This document shows, in pieces, positions 14,447-30,680 of a stretch of DNA of 43,719 nucleotides. The notes beneath the pieces are model-generated. The model did not search any database, was not told the origin of the DNA, and was given only the letters and a program-made list of their open reading frames with translations. The stretch comes from a virus. Its lineage: Duplodnaviria > Heunggongvirae > Uroviricota > Caudoviricetes. The stretch's first letter is position 1; each line of letters opens with the position of its first letter. The position numbers were made by a program, and so were the translations under genes. The DNA is taken from the IMG/VR virus record IMGVR_UViG_2660238269_000008. One strand, written 5' to 3'.

Positions 14447-14809
14447 ATGCTCATAGATTTGGTTTTACCTTACCCGCCGACGGTGAACACTTACTGGCGA
14501 CGCCGTGGCAGCACATATTTTGTATCAAAAGCCGGGGAGCGTTATCGCCGGGCAGTGGCGCTTATTGTTCGCCAGCAGCGACTGAAATTAAGCCTGTCCG
14601 GACGGCTGGCAATAAAAATTATTGCAGAGCCACCGGATAAGCGCCGCCGTGACCTGGACAATATTCTGAAAGCACCGCTGGATGCGCTGACGCACGCGGG
14701 GTTGTTAATGGACGATGAGCAGTTTGATGAAATCAATATTGTACGTGGCAAGCCAGTATCTGGTGGACGGCTGGAGATAAGAATTACAGAGGTGGGTGTG
14801 CATGAATAA
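14447..14809 (+). CDS. rusA: Holliday junction resolvase RusA
   Basis: 120 aa; DKRRRDLDNILKAPLDALT and GGRLEIRITE align with RusA RRRDLDNLQKAAFDALT ... GGRLELTITE. Confidence 0.9.
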   Translation: MLIDLVLPYPPTVNTYWRRRGSTYFVSKAGERYRRAVALIVRQQRLKLSLSGRLAIKIIAEPPDKRRRDLDNILKAPLDALTHAGLLMDDEQFDEINIVRGKPVSGGRLEIRITEVGVHE

Positions 14810-15467
14810 CCAGTATTTACAGTTTGTTCGTGAGCAACTCATGATTGCCACTGCGGATCTTAGTGGGTCGACAAAAGGCCAGCTGGAAGTCTGGCAGGAA
14901 AATGCCCTGTTCGATACAGGGCGTTACAGACGCAAAAAAATTCGTTACCGCGATGAGGTAACCGGAAAAATGATCACGCGGGATAATCCCCCGATCCCGG
15001 GTAAACAATCACTGGCGAAAGGCTCATCAATTGCCCTGGTCAGTCCGGTTGAGTTTTCGACATCATCATGGCGACGCGCCGTTCTGTCTCTTGAAGAACA
15101 TCATAAAGCCTGGCTGCTGTGGTGTTACAGCGGTAGCATTTGCTGGGAGCATCAGATCGCGATAACGCAGTGGGCGTGGACTGAATTTAATGCTCAATCC
15201 GGTACCAGAAAAATTGCAGGAAAAACTCTGGTGCGCCTGAAGACGTTGATCTGGTTGGCGGCGCAGGCGGTAAAAGCTGAGCTTTTTGGTGGGGAAGGTT
15301 ACGAATACCAGGAACTGGCGTTACTGGTGGGAGTAACAACCAAAAACTGGTCCAAGACATTTACTGGTCACTGGGTTGCAATGAAACACATTTTTCATCG
15401 GCTGGATAGTGAAGCTTTATTGTTGGTGGAGGGAACACGTTCAAAACAAAAGGCGGCATTTTCATAG
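14802..15467 (+). CDS. Q: Late-gene antiterminator Q (non-lambda Q family)
   Basis: Position between rusA and a promoter plus short-RNA terminator; 222 aa. Confidence 0.65.
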   Translation: MNNQYLQFVREQLMIATADLSGSTKGQLEVWQENALFDTGRYRRKKIRYRDEVTGKMITRDNPPIPGKQSLAKGSSIALVSPVEFSTSSWRRAVLSLEEHHKAWLLWCYSGSICWEHQIAITQWAWTEFNAQSGTRKIAGKTLVRLKTLIWLAAQAVKAELFGGEGYEYQELALLVGVTTKNWSKTFTGHWVAMKHIFHRLDSEALLLVEGTRSKQKAAFS

Positions 15468-15473
15468 CAAAGT

Positions 15474-15502
15474 ATTGCAAAAGTAGATAAAAAGGCATAT
15501 AT
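15474..15502 (+). promoter_or_regulatory. Candidate late promoter PR' (TTGCAA-17-TATATT)
   Basis: Near-consensus sigma-70 elements immediately downstream of Q. Confidence 0.55.
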
Positions 15503-15554
15503 TTCGTGTAAATCTGATATTTTGCCGTTATTATACGTGATGGCAAAGCCACTA

Positions 15555-15585
15555 AAACCCGTGACCGAGCGGGTTTTTACCCCCC
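15555..15585 (+). terminator. tR'-like intrinsic terminator of a short 6S-like late leader RNA
   Basis: AAACCCG-TGACCGAG-CGGGTTTTT hairpin plus U-tract about 50 nt downstream of the candidate PR'. Confidence 0.65.
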
Positions 15586-15719
15586 AAAAAATGGCATAGA
15601 CATTAAACGTGATGACGATTGTGCCAATACTTTCTCCATCAATGACGCCCCTTGACTGCATGGAATCCAATTTGTTATGTAATGTGTGTTGATATTTTTG
15701 AGTTGTTAATGGTGTTACT

Positions 15720-16433
15720 ATGGATGACAGTGCTCTGCTCAGAAACTCTTCACTTTTTGTTGCTTATATGGGCTGTCTCGGATGGGGGAGCGCTTATTTC
15801 TATGGGTGGGGTACTTCATTTTACTATGGCTTTCCATGGTGGGTTGTCGGGGCTGGTGTCGATGATGTAGCACGAAGTTTGTTTTATGCTGTGACAGTTA
15901 TTGTTATATTCCTTATTGGATGGGGAGTTGGTATTGTTTTCTTTTTGGGCATAAAACAAAAGCGCAATATACAAAATTTGAGTTTTATCCGGCTTTTTCT
16001 CGCGATATTGCTGCTTTTTATTCCACCTGTTCTGGAGTTTTCTGTAATTCATCAGCATGTTGAGCCAGATGTACTGATTTTCTGCGTTCTTGCTGCCTTT
16101 GCAATCACGCTTTTTGTCAGGTCTGGAAGAAGACTTGTTTCAGTCAAATGTTTTTCGGAAATGTCTGTTATTCGCCATCACCGAATTGAGTTCATGATGG
16201 CTGGGTTTATGATTTATTTCTGGGCATTCTCTCTTATTGCCGGTTGGTACAAACCACAGTTTAAGAGGGAATATCAGGCGGTCCACTATGAGAATGTATG
16301 GTATTACATTATTGCGCGCTATGATGATCGTCTGGTGTTATCGAAATCATACAGGAGTGGGGGTAAGAAATTCGTTATATTTAATAGCGGAAATATTAAT
16401 GATTTTGAAATTAATACTGTCAGAGTACGTTAA
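15720..16433 (+). CDS. Integral membrane protein (about 5 TM segments), unknown function; moron downstream of PR'/tR'
   Basis: 237-aa ORF; hydrophobic segments rich in G/W/F/Y; AT-rich, unlike the flanking phage genes. Confidence 0.6.
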   Translation: MDDSALLRNSSLFVAYMGCLGWGSAYFYGWGTSFYYGFPWWVVGAGVDDVARSLFYAVTVIVIFLIGWGVGIVFFLGIKQKRNIQNLSFIRLFLAILLLFIPPVLEFSVIHQHVEPDVLIFCVLAAFAITLFVRSGRRLVSVKCFSEMSVIRHHRIEFMMAGFMIYFWAFSLIAGWYKPQFKREYQAVHYENVWYYIIARYDDRLVLSKSYRSGGKKFVIFNSGNINDFEINTVRVR

Positions 16434-16607
16434 AATTTCCTGAGTAATAAAGATTTTACTGCCCGGCATTGAGCGGTTTTTTTATGCCAGAAAAATGGTG
16501 CAGTACATAAAATGTGCAGGTGGTTATTAATACCGGTCTTTCAGCTTGCTGGCTTTTTTGACAAGAGTTATTGGTGTGTCACGTTAACCGGAAAAGGGAA
16601 AAAGACA

Positions 16608-16804
16608 TGCTGAAACAGCAGGATATGACAGAAACCGCCAGAGCAGTTTTTAATGAATTAAGTGCCACCGAACCGGCGACAGTCGGGGAGATTGCACAGA
16701 ATACGTACCTTTCACGCGAACGCTGCCAGCTAATACTGACCCAGCTTGTTATGGCGGGTCTGGCAGACTATCAGTTTGGTTGTTACAGACGCCTTCAGTC
16801 CTGA
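16608..16804 (+). CDS. Small winged-helix-like protein (65 aa)
   Basis: ATG at 16608 preceded by AAAGGGAAAAAG; within ORF 16571..16804. Confidence 0.45.
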
Positions 16805-16955: not shown

Positions 16956-18014
16956 ATGTTTAATACTGTAAAAATATCCAGTTGTGAGTTAATCAACGCC
17001 GACTGCCTGGAATTTATCCGGTCGTTACCCGAAAATTCTGTTGACCTGATAGTCACGGACCCGCCGTACTTTAAAGTGAAGCCTGAGGGCTGGGATAACC
17101 AGTGGACGGGTGATGAGGATTACCTGAAATGGCTGGACCAGTGTCTGGCGCAGTTCTGGCGGGTGCTGAAACCTGCCGGAAGTCTTTACCTGTTCTGTGG
17201 CCATCGCCTGGCATCTGATATCGAAATCATGATGCGTGAACGCTTCAGTGTGCTGAACCATATTATCTGGGCGAAGCCGTCCGGACGCTGGAACGGGTGC
17301 AACAAGGAAAGCCTGAGGGCGTATTTCCCCGCCACAGAGCGCATTCTGTTCGCGGAACATTATCAGGGGCCGTATCGTCCGAAAGATGCCGGGTATGAGG
17401 CGAAGGGCAGGGCACTGAAACAGCATGTGATGGCTCCGCTGATTGCTTACTTTCGTGATGCGCGTGCTGCCCTGGGGATAACGGCAAAACAGATAGTGGA
17501 TGCCACAGGAAAGAAAAACATGGTGTCGCACTGGTTCAGTGCCAGTCAGTGGCAGCTACCGAACGAAAGTGATTATCTGAAATTACAGGCGCTGTTTGCC
17601 CGGGTGGCAGAAGAGAAGCATCAGCGCGGTGAACTGGAAAAGCCCCACCACCAGCTGCTGGAGACGTATACTTCACTGAACCGGCAGTATGCGGAACTGC
17701 AGAGTGAATATAAGCATCTGCGGCGGTATTTTGGCGTGACGGCGCAGGTGCCATACACGGATGTGTGGACGCATAAACCGGTGCAGTACTATCCCGGGAA
17801 ACATCCGTGCGAAAAACCGGCAGAAATGCTGCAGCAGATAATCAGCGCGAGCAGTCGTCCGGGGGACCTGGTTGCAGATTTCTTCATGGGGTCGGGTTCG
17901 ACAGTCAAAGCCGCGATGGCGCTGGGGCGTCGTGCAACTGGCGTTGAGCTGGAGACTGAACGTTTTGAGCAGACGGTCAGGGAAGTACGGGATTTAGTCA
18001 GTCAGAATGGATGA
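16956..18014 (+). CDS. Orphan DNA methyltransferase (amino-MTase, beta class: DPPY motif IV precedes FxGxG motif I)
   Basis: VTDPPY near the N-terminus, DLVADFFMGSGST near the C-terminus, with a charged/coiled-coil-like segment between; no adjacent restriction endonuclease. Confidence 0.85.
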   Translation: MFNTVKISSCELINADCLEFIRSLPENSVDLIVTDPPYFKVKPEGWDNQWTGDEDYLKWLDQCLAQFWRVLKPAGSLYLFCGHRLASDIEIMMRERFSVLNHIIWAKPSGRWNGCNKESLRAYFPATERILFAEHYQGPYRPKDAGYEAKGRALKQHVMAPLIAYFRDARAALGITAKQIVDATGKKNMVSHWFSASQWQLPNESDYLKLQALFARVAEEKHQRGELEKPHHQLLETYTSLNRQYAELQSEYKHLRRYFGVTAQVPYTDVWTHKPVQYYPGKHPCEKPAEMLQQIISASSRPGDLVADFFMGSGSTVKAAMALGRRATGVELETERFEQTVREVRDLVSQNG

Positions 18015-18054: not shown

Positions 18055-18130
18055 GGCCCTTTAGCTCAGTGGTGAGAGCGAGCGACTCATAATCGCCAGG
18101 TCGCTGGTTCAAATCCAGCAAGGGCCACCA
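18055..18130 (+). tRNA. ileZ: tRNA with CAU anticodon (Ile2, lysidine type; ileZ-like)
   Basis: Hand-folded cloverleaf: acceptor GGCCCTT/AAGGGCC, loop CTCATAA, T-loop TTCAAAT, 3' CCA; closely resembles E. coli ileX as recalled. Confidence 0.85.
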
Positions 18131-18139
18131 TATCACATA

Positions 18140-18216
18140 CCGCCATTAGCTCATCGGGATAGAGCGCCAGCCTTCGAAGCTGGCTGCGCGGGGTTCGAGT
18201 CCTCGATGGCGGTCCA
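18140..18216 (+). tRNA. tRNA-Arg (anticodon read as UCG)
   Basis: Hand-folded cloverleaf: acceptor CCGCCAT/ATGGCGG, anticodon stem CCAGC/GCTGG, loop CTTCGAA, T-loop TTCGAGT, 3' CCA. Confidence 0.75.
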
Positions 18217-18494: not shown

Positions 18495-18923
18495 ATGTAT
18501 TGCCGTGCTGTACCTGTTCTTGTTTTGATATTAGCCAGTCTGACAACTGGCTGCACAAAAGATGTATCGACAAATAATCATGATGCTTCTCTGTATCACT
18601 CAGATAAATTAATAAAGTCGCAAAATTTGAGCTCATCGGAACGTACCCCTGATGCCAGTGAAGAAATCCGGCAGTATGCCATTCAGGTCAGGAAAGCCAT
18701 AGAAGAACAGTTAAAGGATGCGAGTAAGTATTCAGGAAAAGAGTGTTCACTGAGAATGTATATGGCCCCGAATGGTCTTCTGCTACAGGTTAAAAGAGAA
18801 AGCGGTGATCCCGATTTATGTCGTGAAGCGATGAATGCAGTAAAGAATGCTGATATACCATCACCACCGTCTTCAGGAGTATATAAAGCATTTAGAAATG
18901 GCGTGCTGGATTTTAAACTCTGA
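18495..18923 (+). CDS. Lipoprotein with a TolA C-terminal domain III-like fold
   Basis: Signal peptide with lipobox LTTG-C; residues 60-142 align with E. coli TolA C-terminus (YAGKTCTLRIKLAPDGMLLDIKPEGGDPALCQAA...PKPPSQAVYEVFKNAPLDFKP vs SGKECSLRMYMAPNGLLLQVKRESGDPDLCREA...PSPPSSGVYKAFRNGVLDFKL). Confidence 0.8.
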   Translation: MYCRAVPVLVLILASLTTGCTKDVSTNNHDASLYHSDKLIKSQNLSSSERTPDASEEIRQYAIQVRKAIEEQLKDASKYSGKECSLRMYMAPNGLLLQVKRESGDPDLCREAMNAVKNADIPSPPSSGVYKAFRNGVLDFKL

Positions 18924-24541: not shown

Positions 24542-24757
24542 ATGTACCAGATGGAAAAAATCACAACAGGTGTGTCATACACCACGTCAGCGGTGGGAAC
24601 GGGCTACTGGTTCCTGCAGTTGCTGGACAGGGTTTCCCCGTCTCAGTGGGCGGCAATAGGCGTGCTGGGGAGTCTGCTGTTTGGTCTGCTGACGTACCTG
24701 ACGAACCTGTATTTCAAAATTAAAGAAGACCGTCGTAAGGCGGCGCGGGGAGAGTAA
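24542..24757 (+). CDS. S: Class II holin (phage 21 S21-type pinholin) with dual-start motif
   Basis: [71 protein letters not shown] closely matches S21. Confidence 0.9.
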
Positions 24758-24761
24758 GCTG

Positions 24762-25295
24762 ATGAGCAGGAAATTCCGCTATGGTTTATCAGCGGTCGTT
24801 CTGGCGCTGATTGCTGCAGGTGCTTCTGCGCCTGAAATCCTCGACCAGTTTCTTGACGAAAAAGAAGGTAACCACACCACGGCATACCGTGATGGTGCGG
24901 GTATCTGGACCATCTGCCGTGGTGCCACCCGGGTGGATGGTAAGCCTGTCGTCCCCGGCATGAAGTTGTCGAAGGAAAAATGCGACCAGGTTAACGCCAT
25001 TGAACGTGATAAGGCGCTGGCATGGGTGGCGAAAAACATCAGAGTGCCACTGACCGAACCTCAGAAAGCGGGGAGCGCGTCATTCTGTCCTTACAACATT
25101 GGCCCCGGTAAGTGTTTCCCGTCGACGTTTTATAAACGAATTAATGCAGGCGATCGCAGGGGAGCGTGTGAAGCGATTCGCTGGTGGATTAAGGACGGTG
25201 GGCGTGATTGCCGCACACGTTCAAATAACTGCTACGGACAGGTTATTCGTCGTGACCAGGAAAGCGCATTAGCTTGTTGGGGGATAGATCAGTGA
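24762..25295 (+). CDS. R: SAR endolysin (lysozyme, R21-like)
   Basis: N-terminal signal-anchor-release segment [20 protein letters not shown] followed by lysozyme-like domain; follows the pinholin. Confidence 0.9.
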
Positions 25296-25759
25296 GAAGA
25301 GTAACCGCGATTATTTACGCTCTGGTTATCTGCATCATCGTCTGTCTGTTATGGGCTGTTAATCATTACCGCGATAACGCCATCACCTACAAAGCGCAGC
25401 GCGATAAAAAAGTCAGTGAGCTGGAGCTGGCAAATGCAACCATTACTGATATGCAGCAGCGCCAGCGTGATGTTGCTGCACTTGATGCCAGATACTCGAG
25501 GGAATTAGCCGATGCGAGAGCTGAAAATGAAACTCTGCGTGCTGATGTTGCCGCTGGTCGTAAGCGCCTGCGGATCAACGCCACCTGCCCCGGTACCGTG
25601 CGTGAAGCCACCGGCACCTCCGGCGTGGGCAATGATGCCGCCGTCGAACTCTCTCCGGTTGCTGGACGAAACGTTCTCGGTATCAGAGACGGAATCATCA
25701 GCGACCAGGCAGCATTGAGAATGCTTCAGGAATATATCCGCACTCAGTGTATTAACTAG
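25292..25759 (+). CDS. Rz: i-spanin Rz
   Basis: [39 protein letters not shown]... matches lambda Rz; GTG start overlapping the end of R. Confidence 0.85.
25512..25718 (+). CDS. Rz1: o-spanin Rz1 lipoprotein embedded in the +1 frame of Rz
   Basis: [15 protein letters not shown] lipobox and proline-rich [10 protein letters not shown]; nested inside Rz. Confidence 0.8.
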
Positions 25760-26007: not shown

Positions 26008-26254
26008 GCGACCTTATTATTCATGCGCGGTATTGTCGCCGTATTCCTGCATTAACAGAGACCGCAGCCCGACCGGGAGACTCCTCTGCGCGAGTGTGCG
26101 GGGATAATCAAAAACGATACACACCGGGGTTTACCGCGTTAACGGAGCGCGGCGTTGTCCCCTCATGGTCGCTGGTCCGGTGCGATGGTGGAAGAAACTG
26201 GATTTTGTTGCAACTGATAACCATTATCATTTTCGCGGGTCCTTTCCGGCGATC

Positions 26255-26290
26255 CGGGCCGTTACGGGGCGGCGACCTCGCGCGTTTTCA
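26255..26290. other. cos: cos site (cosN) with lambda-type cohesive-end sequence
   Basis: GGGCGGCGACCT at 26266..26277 followed by CGCGTTTTCACTATTTATGAAAATTTTC, matching the lambda cos region as recalled; upstream of nu1. Confidence 0.8.
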
Positions 26291-26452
26291 CTATTTATGA
26301 AAATTTTCTGGGGAAAATCATGTCGGTACTGATTATATGTAATGTATTGTTTTTAAACGGTACGTAAGAAAAAAGGACCGTCACAGGTGCGTGGAAGAAA
26401 GGCATTTTCAGGCCGTTTTGTGTCGTAACTGATTTTTGAATGAGGTTGTTGT

Positions 26453-27001
26453 ATGAATGTTAACAAAAAGAACCTTGCGGAAATGTTTAATGTTGATCCG
26501 CGTACAATTGAACGCTGGCAAACTCAGGGGCTCCCTCAGATATCTGGTGGAGGAAAAGGTATTGAGATCATTTTTGATTCTGCGAAGGCGATCGAATGGT
26601 ATGCGCAGCGTGAAGCCGATATTGAAAACGAAAAACTCCGTAAAGAGGTCGAAGATTTGAGAGCTGCCAGCGAGACTGACCTTCAGCCTGGTACCATTGA
26701 TTACGAACGTTACCGACTGACGAAGGCACAGGCAGATGCACAGGAACTGAAAAATGCCCGCGACAGTGGGCAGGTGATTGATACTGGTTTTTGTATGTAT
26801 GCACTGGCGCGTCTTGCGCAGGACATTTCCGGTATTCTTGACAGTATTCCACTGTATATGCAGAGACAATTCCCTGAATTTCCCCCTTCCGCCCTTGAGT
26901 TTTTGAAATCGGAGATAGCAAAAGCATCTAACAAGTGTGCGGATACTGCAGATGGGTTACCAGATATGCTTGCAGACTACATTAGAGAGTCAAATTCATA
27001 A
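26453..27001 (+). CDS. nu1: Terminase small subunit Nu1
   Basis: [28 protein letters not shown]... closely matches lambda Nu1. Confidence 0.95.
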
Positions 27002-28901
27002 GTTTGTTTTTCCATTCCGGGCTGGGTTAAAGGGGATGATTCGGCCATTGCCTGTGACGCCAGTTGAGTGGGCTGACAGACATTATTATCTACCACCAGA
27101 GTCTTCGTATCTTGCTGGTCGCTGGGAAACTCTGCCATTTCAGATGGCAATAATGAACTGCATGGGGAATGACAGGATCCGCACGGTTAATCTGATTAAA
27201 TCTGCCCGTGTTGGTTATACAAAGATGTTACTGGGCGTGGTCGGGTATTTTATCGAGCATAAAAGCCGTAACACTTTATTGTTCCAACCGACAGATTCAT
27301 CTGCTGAAGATTTTATGAAATCTCACGTGGAGTCAACGTTACGGGATGTCCCTTGTCTGAAAATTCTTTCCCCTTGGCTGGGACGTAAGCACCGGGATAA
27401 CACGCTGACATTAAAAAGATTCACCTCTCGTGTGGGGTTCTGGTGCCTGGGCGGTGCAGCCGCCAAAAACTACCGTGAAAAATCCGTGGACGTGGTCTGC
27501 TATGACGAACTTTCCTCGTTCGAGCCGGATGTTGAAAAAGAGGGCTCGCCAACCCTGCTGGGGGATAAGCGTATTGAGGGCTCGGTATGGCCAAAATCCA
27601 TTCGCGGCTCGACGCCTAAAATAAAAGGTTCCTGCCAGATCGAAAAAGCGGCCAACGAGTCGGCGCATTTCATGCGTTTTTATGTGCCCTGCCCGCACTG
27701 TGGGGAGGCGCAGTATCTGAAATTTGGCGATGAGTCCACGCCTTTTGGCCTTAAATGGGAGAAGGACAGCCCCGAAAGCGTTTTCTACCTCTGTGAACAT
27801 CATGGCTGCGTGATCCATCAGTCTGAGCTTGACCAGAGCAACGGGCGGTGGATCTGTGAAAACACGGGGATGTGGACCCGTGACGGTCTGACGTTTTTCA
27901 GCGCTGCGGGTAATGAAATTCCACCGCCGCGCTCCATCACATTCCATATCTGGACGGCGTACAGTCCGTTCACCACCTGGGTACAGATAGTCTATGACTG
28001 GCTGGATGCACTGAAAGATCCCAACGGCCTGAAAACTTTTGTGAACACCACGCTGGGCGAGACCTGGGAAGAGGCCGTGGGCGAAAAACTCGATCACCAG
28101 GTACTGATGGATAAGGTTGTGCGTTACACGGCGGCGGTGCCTGCCCGGGTGGTTTATCTGACGGCGGGCATTGACTCGCAGCGAAACCGTTTTGAGATGT
28201 ATGTCTGGGGATGGGCTCCGGGAGAGGAAGCCTTTCTGGTGGATAAAATCATCATTATGGGACGTCCAGATGAGGAAGAGACGCTGTTACGTGTGGATGC
28301 GGCGATCAACAAAAAATATCGCCATGCGGATGGCACCGAAATGACCATTTCCCGTGTCTGCTGGGACACCGGGGGGATCGATGGCGAAATCGTTTATCAG
28401 AGATCAAAAAAACACGGTGTTTTCCGTGTGCTGCCGGTAAAAGGCGCGTCTGTCTATGGCAAGCCGGTGATCACCATGCCAAAAACCCGCAATCAGCGGG
28501 GCGTGTATCTGTGTGAAGTGGGGACGGACACCGCAAAAGAAATTCTCTATGCCCGTATGAAAGCCGATCCCACGCCTGCGGATGAAGCCACGTCGTATGC
28601 CATCCGTTTTCCTGATGATCCGGAGGTTTTTTCGCAGACAGAGGCGCAGCAACTGGTGGCGGAAGAGCTGGTGGAGAAGTGGGAAAAAGGAAAGATGCGT
28701 CTGCTGTGGGATAACAAAAAGCGGCGTAACGAAGCGCTGGACTGCCTGGTGTATGCCTACGCGGCATTACGTGTGTCCGTGCAACGCTGGCAGCTTGATC
28801 TGGCTGTACTGGCAAAATCCCGGGAAGAAGAGACGACCCGGCCAACCCTGAAAGAACTGGCAGCGAAGCTGTCCGGAGGAGTGAATGGTTACAGTCGCTG
28901 A
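26937..28901 (+). CDS. A: Terminase large subunit A
   Basis: Lambda gpA-like throughout ([18 protein letters not shown], ATPase and nuclease regions); exact start codon uncertain (26937 or 26952). Confidence 0.95.
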
Positions 28902-29091
28902 ACTGCAGGCGCTGCGTCAGGCGCGCCTTGATTTATTAACCGGTAAACGGGTGGTGTCTGTCCAGAAAGATGGTCGCAGAATTGAATATACGGCGGCTTC
29001 TCTGGATGAGCTTAACCGTGCGATCAATGATGCGGAGTCGGTACTGGGGACAACCCGACGTCGCCGTCGTCCGCTGGGAGTGAGGTTATGA
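28885..29091 (+). CDS. W: Head-tail joining protein W
   Basis: LTGKRVVSVQKDGRRIEYTAASL matches lambda gpW. Confidence 0.9.
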   Translation: MVTVAELQALRQARLDLLTGKRVVSVQKDGRRIEYTAASLDELNRAINDAESVLGTTRRRRRPLGVRL

Positions 29092-30680
29092 AACGAACGC
29101 CTGTCCTGATTGATGTGAACGGCGTTCCGCTTCGGGAGAGCCTCAGCTACCACGGGGGCGGTGCAGGATTTGGCGGGCAAATGGCGGAGTGGTTGCCACC
29201 GGCGCAGAGTGCCGATGCGGCCCTGCTGCCCGCGTTGCGTCTGGGGAATGCCCGTGCAGATGATCTGGTGCGCAATAACGGGATAGCGGCTAATGCGGTG
29301 GCCCTGCATAAGGATCATATTGTCGGGCATATGTTTCTGATCAGCTACCGTCCGAACTGGCGCTGGCTGGGGATGCGGGAGACTGCGGCAAAAAGTTTTG
29401 TCGATGAGGTGGAGGCGGCCTGGTCGGAATACGCAGAAGGGATGTTTGGCGAGATCGACGTGGAAGGGAAACGCACGTTTACGGAATTTATCCGTGAAGG
29501 TGTGGGCGTTCATGCCTTTAACGGCGAAATCTTTGTGCAGCCGGTCTGGGATACGGAGAGCACGCAGCTGTTTCGTACGCGTTTTAAAGCCGTGAGTCCG
29601 AAACGGGTGGACACGCCAGGGCACGGTATGGGGAACCGCTTTCTGCGGGCCGGTGTGGAGGTTGATCGATATGGCCGTGCCGTTGCGTACCATATCTGTG
29701 AGGATGATTTTCCGTTCTCTGGTAGTGGACGATGGGAACGGATCCCGCGTGAACTTCCCACCGGGCGTCCGGCCATGCTGCATATTTTCGAGCCGGTGGA
29801 GGACGGGCAGACCCGTGGGGCCAATCAGTTTTACAGCGTCATGGAACGGCTGAAGATGCTCGATTCCCTGCAGGCAACACAGCTTCAGTCGGCCATTGTT
29901 AAAGCCATGTATGCAGCGACGATTGAAAGTGAACTTGATACCGAAAAGGCCTTTGAATATATCGCGGGGGCACCGCAGGGTCAGCAGGATAATCCGCTTA
30001 TTAATATTCTGGAGAAGTTCTCCAGCTGGTATGACACGAATCATGTGACGCTGGGCGGTGTCAAAATTCCGCACCTTTTCCCCGGTGATGATCTGAAACT
30101 GCAGACCGCGCAGGATTCAGACAATGGATTTTCGGCGCTTGAACAGGCGCTGCTGCGGTATATCGCCGCCGGTCTTGGCGTTTCCTACGAACAGTTGTCC
30201 CGTGATTACTCGAAGGTCAGTTATTCAAGTGCCCGCGCCTCTGCCAATGAGTCGTGGCGCTATTTTATGGGACGACGAAAATTTATTGCGGCCCGGCTGG
30301 CCACGCAGATGTTTTCCTGCTGGCTGGAAGAGGCACTTCTTCGGGGGATTATCCGTCCGCCACGGGCACGTTTTGATTTTTATCAGGCGCGATCAGCCTG
30401 GTCACGGGCCGAGTGGATTGGTGCCGGAAGAATGGCCATTGACGGGCTCAAGGAGGTCCAGGAATCGGTGATGCGTATTGATTCCGGACTGAGCACGTAT
30501 GAGAAAGAGCTGGCGCTGATGGGTGAGGATTATCAGGACATTTTCCGCCAGCAGGTCAGGGAATCCGCAGAGCGGGAAAAAGCCGGACTCTCACGTCCGG
30601 TGTGGATAGCGCAGGCGTATCAGCAGCAGATAGCGGAGAGCCGCAGGCCGGAAGAGGAGACAACACCACGTGAGACGTAA
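29088..30680 (+). CDS. B: Portal protein B
   Basis: 530 aa; position and size as lambda gpB. Confidence 0.9.
   Translation: MKRTPVLIDVNGVPLRESLSYHGGGAGFGGQMAEWLPPAQSADAALLPALRLGNARADDLVRNNGIAANAVALHKDHIVGHMFLISYRPNWRWLGMRETAAKSFVDEVEAAWSEYAEGMFGEIDVEGKRTFTEFIREGVGVHAFNGEIFVQPVWDTESTQLFRTRFKAVSPKRVDTPGHGMGNRFLRAGVEVDRYGRAVAYHICEDDFPFSGSGRWERIPRELPTGRPAMLHIFEPVEDGQTRGANQFYSVMERLKMLDSLQATQLQSAIVKAMYAATIESELDTEKAFEYIAGAPQGQQDNPLINILEKFSSWYDTNHVTLGGVKIPHLFPGDDLKLQTAQDSDNGFSALEQALLRYIAAGLGVSYEQLSRDYSKVSYSSARASANESWRYFMGRRKFIAARLATQMFSCWLEEALLRGIIRPPRARFDFYQARSAWSRAEWIGAGRMAIDGLKEVQESVMRIDSGLSTYEKELALMGEDYQDIFRQQVRESAEREKAGLSRPVWIAQAYQQQIAESRRPEEETTPRET

Follow-up and report, generated by a model that had tools for sequence, protein, structure and literature searches.

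The locus

The window analysed here is a stretch of 43,719 nucleotides (IMG/VR record IMGVR_UViG_2660238269_000008) corresponding to a lambdoid prophage integrated at ompW, and the present analysis concerns a gene of its late region, at positions 15720–16433, whose product is almost certainly an inner-membrane protein of the TfpB family (Pfam PF27470). The RefSeq entry for the identical coding sequence (WP_000342737.1) is named "hypothetical protein" and is found in Escherichia coli 2013C-3181 and in many other genomes of the STEC type (E. coli that produces Shiga toxin). The gene order in this part of the prophage is DUF968/YdfU, RusA, 82-type Q, the TfpB-family open reading frame (ORF), a 65-amino acid winged-helix protein, an N6/N4 DNA methyltransferase and two tRNAs, followed by a lipoprotein with a TolA C-terminal domain, a NanS-p esterase, the lysis genes and the terminase. 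The features that precede and include the gene are the following:

14796–15467, plus strand: Q antiterminator, 82-like (PF06323, E 1.3e-90; RefSeq "bacteriophage antitermination protein Q")
15475–15503, plus strand: putative PR'-type late promoter, TTGCAA-17-TATATT, located by consensus scan eight bases past the Q stop codon
about 15554–15582, plus strand: putative tR' intrinsic terminator, AAAACCCG...CGGGTTTTT hairpin and T run (RNA fold, alignment to phage 434)
15600–15651, plus strand: spacer accompanying the gene in prophages, AAACGTGATG.CGATTG.GCAA...TTTCTCC, conserved in four Q contexts
15652–15681, plus strand: promoter-like element consisting of a -35 TTGACT (15652–15657), an 18-nucleotide spacer and an extended -10 TGtTATGTA (15673–15681)
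15720–16433, plus strand: TfpB-family (PF27470) inner-membrane protein gene, ATG start, 237 amino acids

The base composition of the ORF, with a GC content of 0.399 and a third-position GC content (GC3) of 0.370, contrasts with that of the window (0.516) and of the Q, RusA, DUF968 and methyltransferase genes (0.49–0.54), so that the low GC content relative to the flanking phage genes, remarked upon in the initial annotation, is borne out by the figures.

Transcription signals

The same annotation had described the gene as the first one downstream of the Q-dependent late promoter PR' and its terminator tR', and this position is upheld by the PF06323 match of Q, the promoter scan, the hairpin fold and the alignment with phage 434. 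Indeed, the Q protein of the window is 77% identical to that of the Q82-like gene of phage 434, the PR'-type block directly 3' of the Q stop codon is conserved between the two, and the tR' hairpin, for which folding of the RNA from 15505 to 15600 gives -27.4 kcal/mol (z = -3.15), aligns with the feature designated "terminator" in the phage 434 record (OL657226). The assignment of the two sites as PR' and tR' is thus supported by homology to this phage.

The spacer at 15600–15651 is kept behind Q82-like, lambda-Q-like, 220-amino acid and PF06530-type Q genes. The TTGACT that follows it had been pointed out from the outset as a -35-like element possibly allowing expression in the lysogen, and it proves to be part of a block, CTCTTGAC[T/G]...TTTGTTATGTAA, that is conserved approximately 45 bp 5' of the start codon in seven prophage contexts comprising the four types of Q and that is also present on plasmid pUMNK88_Ent of enterotoxigenic E. 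coli (ETEC), which has neither Q nor PR' nor tR'. The consensus scan passed over this block, the -10 of which is imperfect and lacks the final T. The conserved footprint represents the best available evidence that the TfpB-family gene brings a putative promoter of its own. On the 3' side, the consensus scan found no terminator-like site between 16434 and 16606, a segment that folds no better than its shuffled versions (z +1.17), and the variants cease to be homologous about 20 bp beyond the stop codon.

With this arrangement, the gene's own sigma-70 promoter would provide weak transcription in the lysogen, and after induction strong transcription would result from Q-antiterminated read-through from PR', following the same logic that applies to stx when it occupies this slot.

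A cargo unit of prophages and plasmids

At least 186 IMG/VR contigs carry the gene, and 80 of these loci were examined as prophage contexts. In these 80 loci the gene is found 208–256 bp 3' of Q, irrespective of whether the latter is of the Q82-like, lambda-Q-like, 220-amino acid or PF06530 type, and the same succession of Q and TfpB-family gene exists in a Yersinia prophage. In phage 434 the order is Q82-like gene, terminator, TfpB-family gene, TciB, NanS-p and pinholin. Thus, the initial statement that the gene does not belong to the known lambdoid late gene set is correct insofar as lambda lacks it, but it does not do justice to a gene that is a recurrent occupant of this slot, in phage 434 as in the IMG/VR contigs. 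On the other hand, PPompW and related phages, which have the end of Q, PR' and tR' in common with the window (86% identity), continue directly with the tRNA genes. Because these relatives run straight from tR' to the tRNAs, the unit can be regarded as an insertion in a general cargo slot, the same that also holds stx.

The full unit is present in 196 of the 5426 complete E. coli genomes, and the gene is by no means restricted to prophages. Of the 156 plasmid records that contain it, 106 are Shigella pINV, where it lies between insertion sequence (IS) elements and where its carriage extends to essentially all the invasion plasmids sampled. It is also found on pUMNK88_Ent, the ETEC plasmid encoding the heat-labile enterotoxin LT, at 866 bp from eltA and in divergent orientation (L043 3358–4134), and a TfpB-family gene occurs on one Salmonella IncFII plasmid. 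Furthermore, a solitary gene amid unrelated housekeeping genes is seen in Neisseria, Avibacterium, Mannheimia, Actinobacillus, Aggregatibacter, Pasteurella, Haemophilus ducreyi and Glaesserella. In Pasteurellaceae, Mannheimia and Pasteurella included, the synteny is maintained across species and genera (on the DnaK/DnaJ side and on the LldD side), and Aggregatibacter and Mannheimia have two to three diverged paralogues per genome.

No conserved neighbour or partner gene was found in any of the prophage, plasmid or chromosomal contexts examined. Since the unit follows four unrelated Q families, resides on plasmids and has solitary chromosomal relatives, the protein probably works without a dedicated partner. 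Judging from these comparisons, the spacer, the promoter-like block and the ORF, with no terminator, appear to constitute an autonomous cargo unit inserted directly after tR'. As in a moron, the unit is absent from relatives that share its flanks and its composition is foreign; a terminator of its own is lacking. The resemblance to stx and to the other morons of the Q-to-S region lies in the slot directly 3' of Q, PR' and tR', in the foreign base composition, in the dual transcription logic suggested here and, in some prophages (L064, L083 and L107), in the presence of the TfpB-family gene beside stx itself; the differences are that the product is a membrane protein instead of a secreted toxin and that the unit has no terminator.

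The toxin neighbours deserve separate consideration. The A-subunit gene of an AB5 toxin is found within 4 kb of the TfpB-family gene in 5 of the 80 prophage loci, namely Stx2 in two cases (L064 and L083), a divergent Stx (L107), an LT-II-like toxin (L102) and a pertussis-S1-like toxin (L096), and there is none in the remaining 75; the TfpB-like alleles beside these toxin genes are diverged. In the published LT-II loci the toxin genes are positioned after the lysozyme gene instead. In Glaesserella parasuis, cdtC, cdtB and cdtA are convergent with a TfpB homologue located about 250 bp away (L027 6955–9017), an adjacency that is unique to Glaesserella among the non-enteric loci examined. An obligate partnership with toxins was considered and rejected, given the 5 loci out of 80 and their differing orientations; since most loci are toxin-free and the orientations vary, the adjacency is read as the shared use of cargo sites. 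The copy of pUMNK88_Ent retains the promoter block of prophage type, an indication that the flank of eltAB on this plasmid derives from a lambdoid late region. As to lpxR, the gene for lipid A deacylase, it is located just 5' of Q in 434-type prophages whose TfpB-family alleles are 56–74% identical, and in Citrobacter rodentium it directly adjoins the TfpB homologue with no Q in between, a locus that looks like a prophage remnant (for these lpxR neighbours: L041 2666–3625, L002 4863–5823, L103–L105 and L111–L123).

Topology, conservation and selection

Hydropathy and the positive-inside distribution of charges indicate an N-in protein with five membrane spans and a C-terminal tail of 60 amino acids (residues 178–237) placed outside; the N-terminus and the loops 78–91 and 134–156 contain 11 K/R, the other two loops only one. 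The AlphaFold2 (AF2) model obtained with 60 homologues (predicted local distance difference test, pLDDT, 77; predicted template modelling score, pTM, 0.70) has helices at residues 4–36, 47–78, 89–111, 116–135 and 155–181, followed by five beta strands at 184–235. Hydropathy, charge and model therefore agree on the polytopic protein with five transmembrane segments and a soluble C-terminal tail that had been anticipated, and the aromatic and glycine-rich character attributed to its helices is evident in residues 10–53, which include 13 F/W/Y and 8 G. The protein is almost certainly a polytopic inner-membrane protein, with a predicted cytoplasmic N-terminus, five helices and a periplasmic beta domain of about 55 amino acids. 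Three of its segments are of particular relevance:

15747–15881, plus strand: family conserved core, residues 10–54, SS..AY.G.LGWGSAYFYGWG.SFYYGFPWW.V..G...ARSL
16182–16262, plus strand: helix 5, residues 155–181, with invariant Y166, F167 and G175 (alignment and AF2)
16263–16430, plus strand: small five-stranded beta domain, residues 182–237, predicted periplasmic (AF2 and positive-inside counts)

According to charge and AF2, the conserved core corresponds to the outer half of helix 1, the periplasmic loop and the start of helix 2. The beta domain is basic (11 K/R versus 6 D/E) and its strands are modelled with a pLDDT of about 74–86. Eleven positions (S10, S11, Y26, Y28, W30, W40, A51, R52, Y166, F167 and G175) are invariant in 60 sequences from four bacterial families, and the model groups them on the periplasmic side, in helices 1, 2 and 5 and the loop between the first two. 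The same 60 homologues have no invariant Asp, Glu or His, which makes an enzyme or an ion-coupled transporter unlikely.

Codon analysis of 61 unique enterobacterial alleles yielded an overall ratio of non-synonymous to synonymous substitutions (dN/dS) of 0.16 at a dS of about 0.6. Residues 1–53 give a ratio of 0.047 and helix 5 one of 0.061; the C-domain, with 0.24 and the highest entropy at residues 211–230, is the more variable part of the protein. The TfpB-family ORF is a genuine, selectively constrained gene.

The TfpB family

All 104 homologues carry the precomputed Pfam tag PF27470 "TfpB", and the representative of a 90%-identity cluster with this tag (P0002) is 95% identical to the window protein. 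A direct Pfam scan of the latter returned no match because the PF27470 model is newer than the Pfam version scanned; the window protein is, with near certainty, a member of this family and not an orphan. The family owes its name to an ORF that Moraxella bovis carries within its invertible tfpQ/tfpI pilin segment, and BLASTP aligns residues 10–232 of the window protein with M. bovis TfpB at 29% identity (E 2e-27). The two proteins are homologous over their full length and share the length class, the layout of helices and beta domain and the N-terminal motif SS..AY.YGWG..YG[FY]PWW..ARSL; they differ in setting, the gene of Moraxella being enclosed by inverted pilin segments beside Piv and that of the window being prophage late-region cargo.

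An exhaustive HMMER profile search recovered 72 of 1.84 billion representative proteins, and the distribution of the family comprises Enterobacterales, Pasteurellaceae, Neisseriaceae and Moraxella, all of them animal-associated Proteobacteria; the Moraxella relatives, found by scanning species-representative genomes, are those of M. bovis, M. lacunata, M. equi and M. oblonga. The family members are all annotated as hypothetical, save for one old automatic "protein tfpB" assigned to an E. coli fragment. A second, very divergent enterobacterial subfamily of PF27470 (P0149, P0150 and P0285–P0298; about 17% identity, motif AY.YE.G..YFGIP, HHalign probability 98.4%) is present in Klebsiella, Raoultella, Enterobacter, Mangrovibacter, Lonsdalea and Citrobacter. 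The weakest profile matches had been considered as pointers to a larger parent superfamily, but they turned out to be this second subfamily. A 56%-identical allele of enterobacterial type was noticed on a 3-kb contig (L015) of a "Veillonella sp." metagenome-assembled genome; most likely the contig was misbinned and the allele is not truly present in Firmicutes.

The Pfam, NCBIfam and PADLOC scans of the window protein produced nothing significant, and its PHROG matches, phrog_1521 (E 2.6e-85) and three fragment families, are solely of the "unknown function" category. The AF2 model has no structural relative among the solved structures of the PDB or the viral structures of BFVD, and literature searches on PF27470, Moraxella tfpB, the accession numbers and the phage 434 genome brought up no functional information. 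In keeping with the initial annotation, the searches of sequence libraries and structures gave no match to a characterised transporter or structural protein.

Possible functions

The reading favoured here, with a probability of roughly 0.35, is that the TfpB-family protein is an exclusion/immunity-type lysogenic-conversion protein that would work by itself where the inner membrane faces the periplasm. Prophage-encoded inner-membrane proteins that are expressed in the lysogen and have known roles are mostly concerned with exclusion or abortive infection, as are P22 SieA, HK97 gp15, lambda RexB and T4 Imm; it is this usual role, along with the carriage on plasmids and prophages and the coexistence of a conserved module with a variable periplasmic domain, that recommends the reading. 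The conserved module formed by the N-terminal region and helix 5 would dock on a conserved component of the inner membrane or self-associate, and the more variable beta domain would block entry via the periplasm, for instance by a superinfecting phage's DNA-ejection apparatus or by a membrane-active bacteriocin. As far as the alignments go, a conserved N-terminal module combined with a more variable periplasmic C-domain fits an effector-plus-specificity design. Like SieA, gp15, RexB and Imm, the protein is single, small, prophage-borne and inserted in the inner membrane, lacks enzymatic motifs and has a patchy distribution on mobile elements. Those four are expressed in the lysogen, as the TfpB-family gene presumably is; they differ from it in that the TfpB family has no similarity to PADLOC models or annotated PHROGs and has relatives that are stable chromosomal genes in Pasteurellaceae.

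Several observations weigh against exclusion. The search for defence systems with PADLOC gave no match (the best being AbiC, E 0.24), and no functionally annotated PHROG was hit. The Pasteurellaceae synteny across species and genera is more like that of a physiological gene than that of a defence gene with fast turnover, and no region with a dN/dS above 1 was detected among the 61 alleles, i.e., there is no arms-race signature at this resolution. Between E. coli and Neisseria the N-terminal motif is nearly identical, a finding that speaks for a conserved cellular partner and would fit other roles as well. Finally, the promoter activity is deduced from conservation alone, and the exclusion phenotype is a putative one.

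A different role, possible though on the doubtful side, is that of a factor for host adaptation or envelope fitness, comparable to bor, lom, iss and lpxR among the virulence-associated morons and with no part in the exclusion of phages or bacteriocins, which would alter some property of the inner membrane or periplasm for life on animal mucosa, e.g., tolerance to host antimicrobials or bile, or envelope remodelling. The stable Pasteurellaceae synteny and the strong purifying selection fit a physiological function of this kind, and the confinement of the family to animal-associated Proteobacteria argues in its favor, as does the presence of the gene on enteric virulence elements, from the 106 pINV records and the ETEC LT plasmid, where it lies by eltAB, to the prophages with Stx2, LT-II-like and pertussis-like toxins. 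The adjacency of lpxR in 434-type prophages and in C. rodentium is a further point on this side. However, neither the sequence nor the fold yields a mechanism, and the adjacency of both toxins and lpxR is explained by the shared cargo slot, 75 of the 80 prophage loci being toxin-free within 4 kb.

The origin of the family name raises the question of whether the protein could be a type IV pilin or pseudopilin accessory comparable to TfpY/FimB, modulating type IV pili (PpdD/HCP) or the pseudopilus of the type II secretion system (T2SS) in the lysogen; its conserved helices would bind the hydrophobic N-terminal helix of the pilin within the inner membrane, and its periplasmic domain would contact the pilin head. 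Accessories of the TfpY/FimB kind, the genes of which follow those of pilins, are described as N-in membrane proteins that have their C-domain in the periplasm and help pili to assemble; the TfpY-like ones possess three helices and a periplasmic domain that is larger and of mixed alpha/beta type (PMC11841053). In M. bovis, two inverted pilin C-terminal segments enclose the gene of the 261-amino acid homologue, which is the tfpB ORF classically known from the invertible pilin region, and in M. lacunata tfpB is flanked by a Piv-type recombinase and by a full pilin gene. With regard to position, M. bovis tfpB, by Piv, is 186 bp 3' of the pilin coding segment and co-oriented with it, a location typical of TfpY/FimB genes. 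The outline of the proteins is also similar, consisting of an N-in multi-span anchor and a periplasmic C-domain with conservation mostly in the membrane part; the near-invariant motif could be explained by a very conserved partner such as the N-terminal helix of pilin, and some of the neighbours, LT-I and LT-II, are toxins secreted by T2SS.

Other results speak against equating the two. In more than 20 distinct non-Moraxella contexts there is no pilin, pil or gsp gene nearby, and in the window the neighbours are Q and the winged-helix/methyltransferase pair instead of a pilin gene. Among the hits of the profile search of 1.84 billion representatives whose organisms were traced, there is no Pseudomonas, Acinetobacter or Dichelobacter protein, so that the TfpY-like proteins are not detectably homologous. 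The resemblance to TfpX, TfpY, TfpZ and FimB of P. aeruginosa and D. nodosus (PMC11841053) is that of small N-in inner-membrane proteins with several helices and a periplasmic C-domain, and the gene position just 3' of pilin is shared by Moraxella tfpB only; the five helices and 55-amino acid all-beta domain of the TfpB family differ from the three helices and larger alpha/beta domain of these accessories, a distinction based on the description of the latter. Furthermore, tfpB is frameshifted independently in M. lacunata (a 2-bp deletion in both copies) and in M. equi (a 1-bp deletion). The lesions (L035 6490–6610, L034 and L032 6532–6652) fall within 20 bp of each other in DNA that is otherwise about 98% identical, and the C-terminal beta domain is lost through either of them. 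In this connection, an explanation of Moraxella tfpB by phase variation was considered and discarded, the deletions being outside the T6 tract and not changes in tract length. A link to the competence regulon was likewise abandoned, as CRP-S sites were not found upstream of the Pasteurellaceae and Neisseriaceae homologues, the Pasteurellaceae giving one weak match in 28. Altogether, the pilin-accessory idea is weakened for the window protein and must be deemed improbable.

A phage late function, either as a modulator of lysis timing (antiholin-like, with a periplasmic sensing domain) or as a membrane factor in virion release, would suit a membrane protein with a periplasmic domain encoded at the first position of the Q-dependent late transcript and co-transcribed, for want of a terminator, with the downstream late genes. 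It is nevertheless very unlikely: the gene is absent from most lambdoid phages, close PPompW relatives included, persists intact on plasmids and as a solitary chromosomal gene far from phage genes, has a conserved putative promoter of its own and is separated by about 8 kb from the holin/endolysin cassette, i.e., the class II holin, lysozyme and spanin genes located 3' of it at about 24543–25730 of the window (L001 29144–30331). From holins and antiholins the protein also differs in its 237 amino acids, in its location outside the lysis cassette and in its occurrence beyond phages.

An equally slim chance must be given to the TfpB family being a hitherto unrecognised class of stand-alone inner-membrane helpers for exported cargo assembled in the periplasm. 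By attaching to helices of pilin-like proteins or pseudopilins, or by conditioning the envelope in some other way, they would enable the release or assembly of multi-subunit toxins or pili, and such a role would account for the diverged members found beside five different periplasmic toxins (Stx2, LT-I, LT-II, a pertussis-like AB5 toxin and, in Glaesserella, CDT) as well as inside the Moraxella pilin switch. Lastly, that the ORF is non-functional, i.e., a chance product of an AT-rich spacer, since such DNA favours long ORFs on some frames, or a decaying remnant, as its public label of mere "hypothetical protein" might allow, is refuted by the full-length homologues of 20–97% identity in four bacterial families, the low dN/dS, the invariant motif and the confident, co-evolution-based AF2 model.

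Other genes of the window

Downstream of the TfpB-family gene, the 65-amino acid winged-helix protein (16607–16804, phrog_331) and the N6/N4 DNA methyltransferase (16956–18014) are paired in most loci and occur together also where there is no TfpB-like gene (L082); they may represent a controller/methylase pair. The two tRNAs are located as follows:

18055–18130: tRNA 1, called tRNA-Met (CAT) by ARAGORN and tRNA-Ile by RefSeq
18140–18216: tRNA 2, tRNA-Arg (TCG)

The tRNA-Ile call for the first of these is that expected for a lysidine-modified, ileX-type tRNA. The gene at 18495–18923 (plus strand) encodes a protein of 142 amino acids in which a lipoprotein-type signal (LTTGC lipobox) is combined with the C-terminal domain of TolA (PF06519, E 6e-23); its GC content is 0.41, its GC3 is 0.33, and it occupies the slot where Stx phages carry stx. 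As a periplasmic TolA-domain decoy, its product could interfere with Tol-dependent colicins or with the entry of filamentous phages. The interval between the lysis genes and the terminase (about 26147–29125; L001 30748–33726) contains, according to RefSeq, a "sce7726 family protein" and, on the opposite strand, a "beta family protein" whose gene is split by an IS3 insertion; these may be another cargo or defence-like pair.

Implications

What is new here is the prophage-borne member, the PF27470 family and the moron site in the Q-to-S region being already known. In lambdoid prophages, the TfpB-family gene is placed where cargo is induced most strongly, in the stx slot, and its carriers range from the classical phage 434 to the Stx, LT-II and pertussis-like toxin prophages, the Shigella invasion plasmids and an ETEC plasmid, where it is a neighbour of eltAB. 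Thus, mobile elements of key importance in STEC, ETEC and Shigella carry a gene belonging to a family that has no characterised member, and to establish the function of one of them would annotate a recurrent gene of several major pathogens together with the decades-old tfpB ORF of Moraxella. Were the protein a true exclusion or immunity factor, it would represent a new fold for that class; were a link to pili, T2SS or toxin release to prove true, it would be relevant to the biology of virulence.

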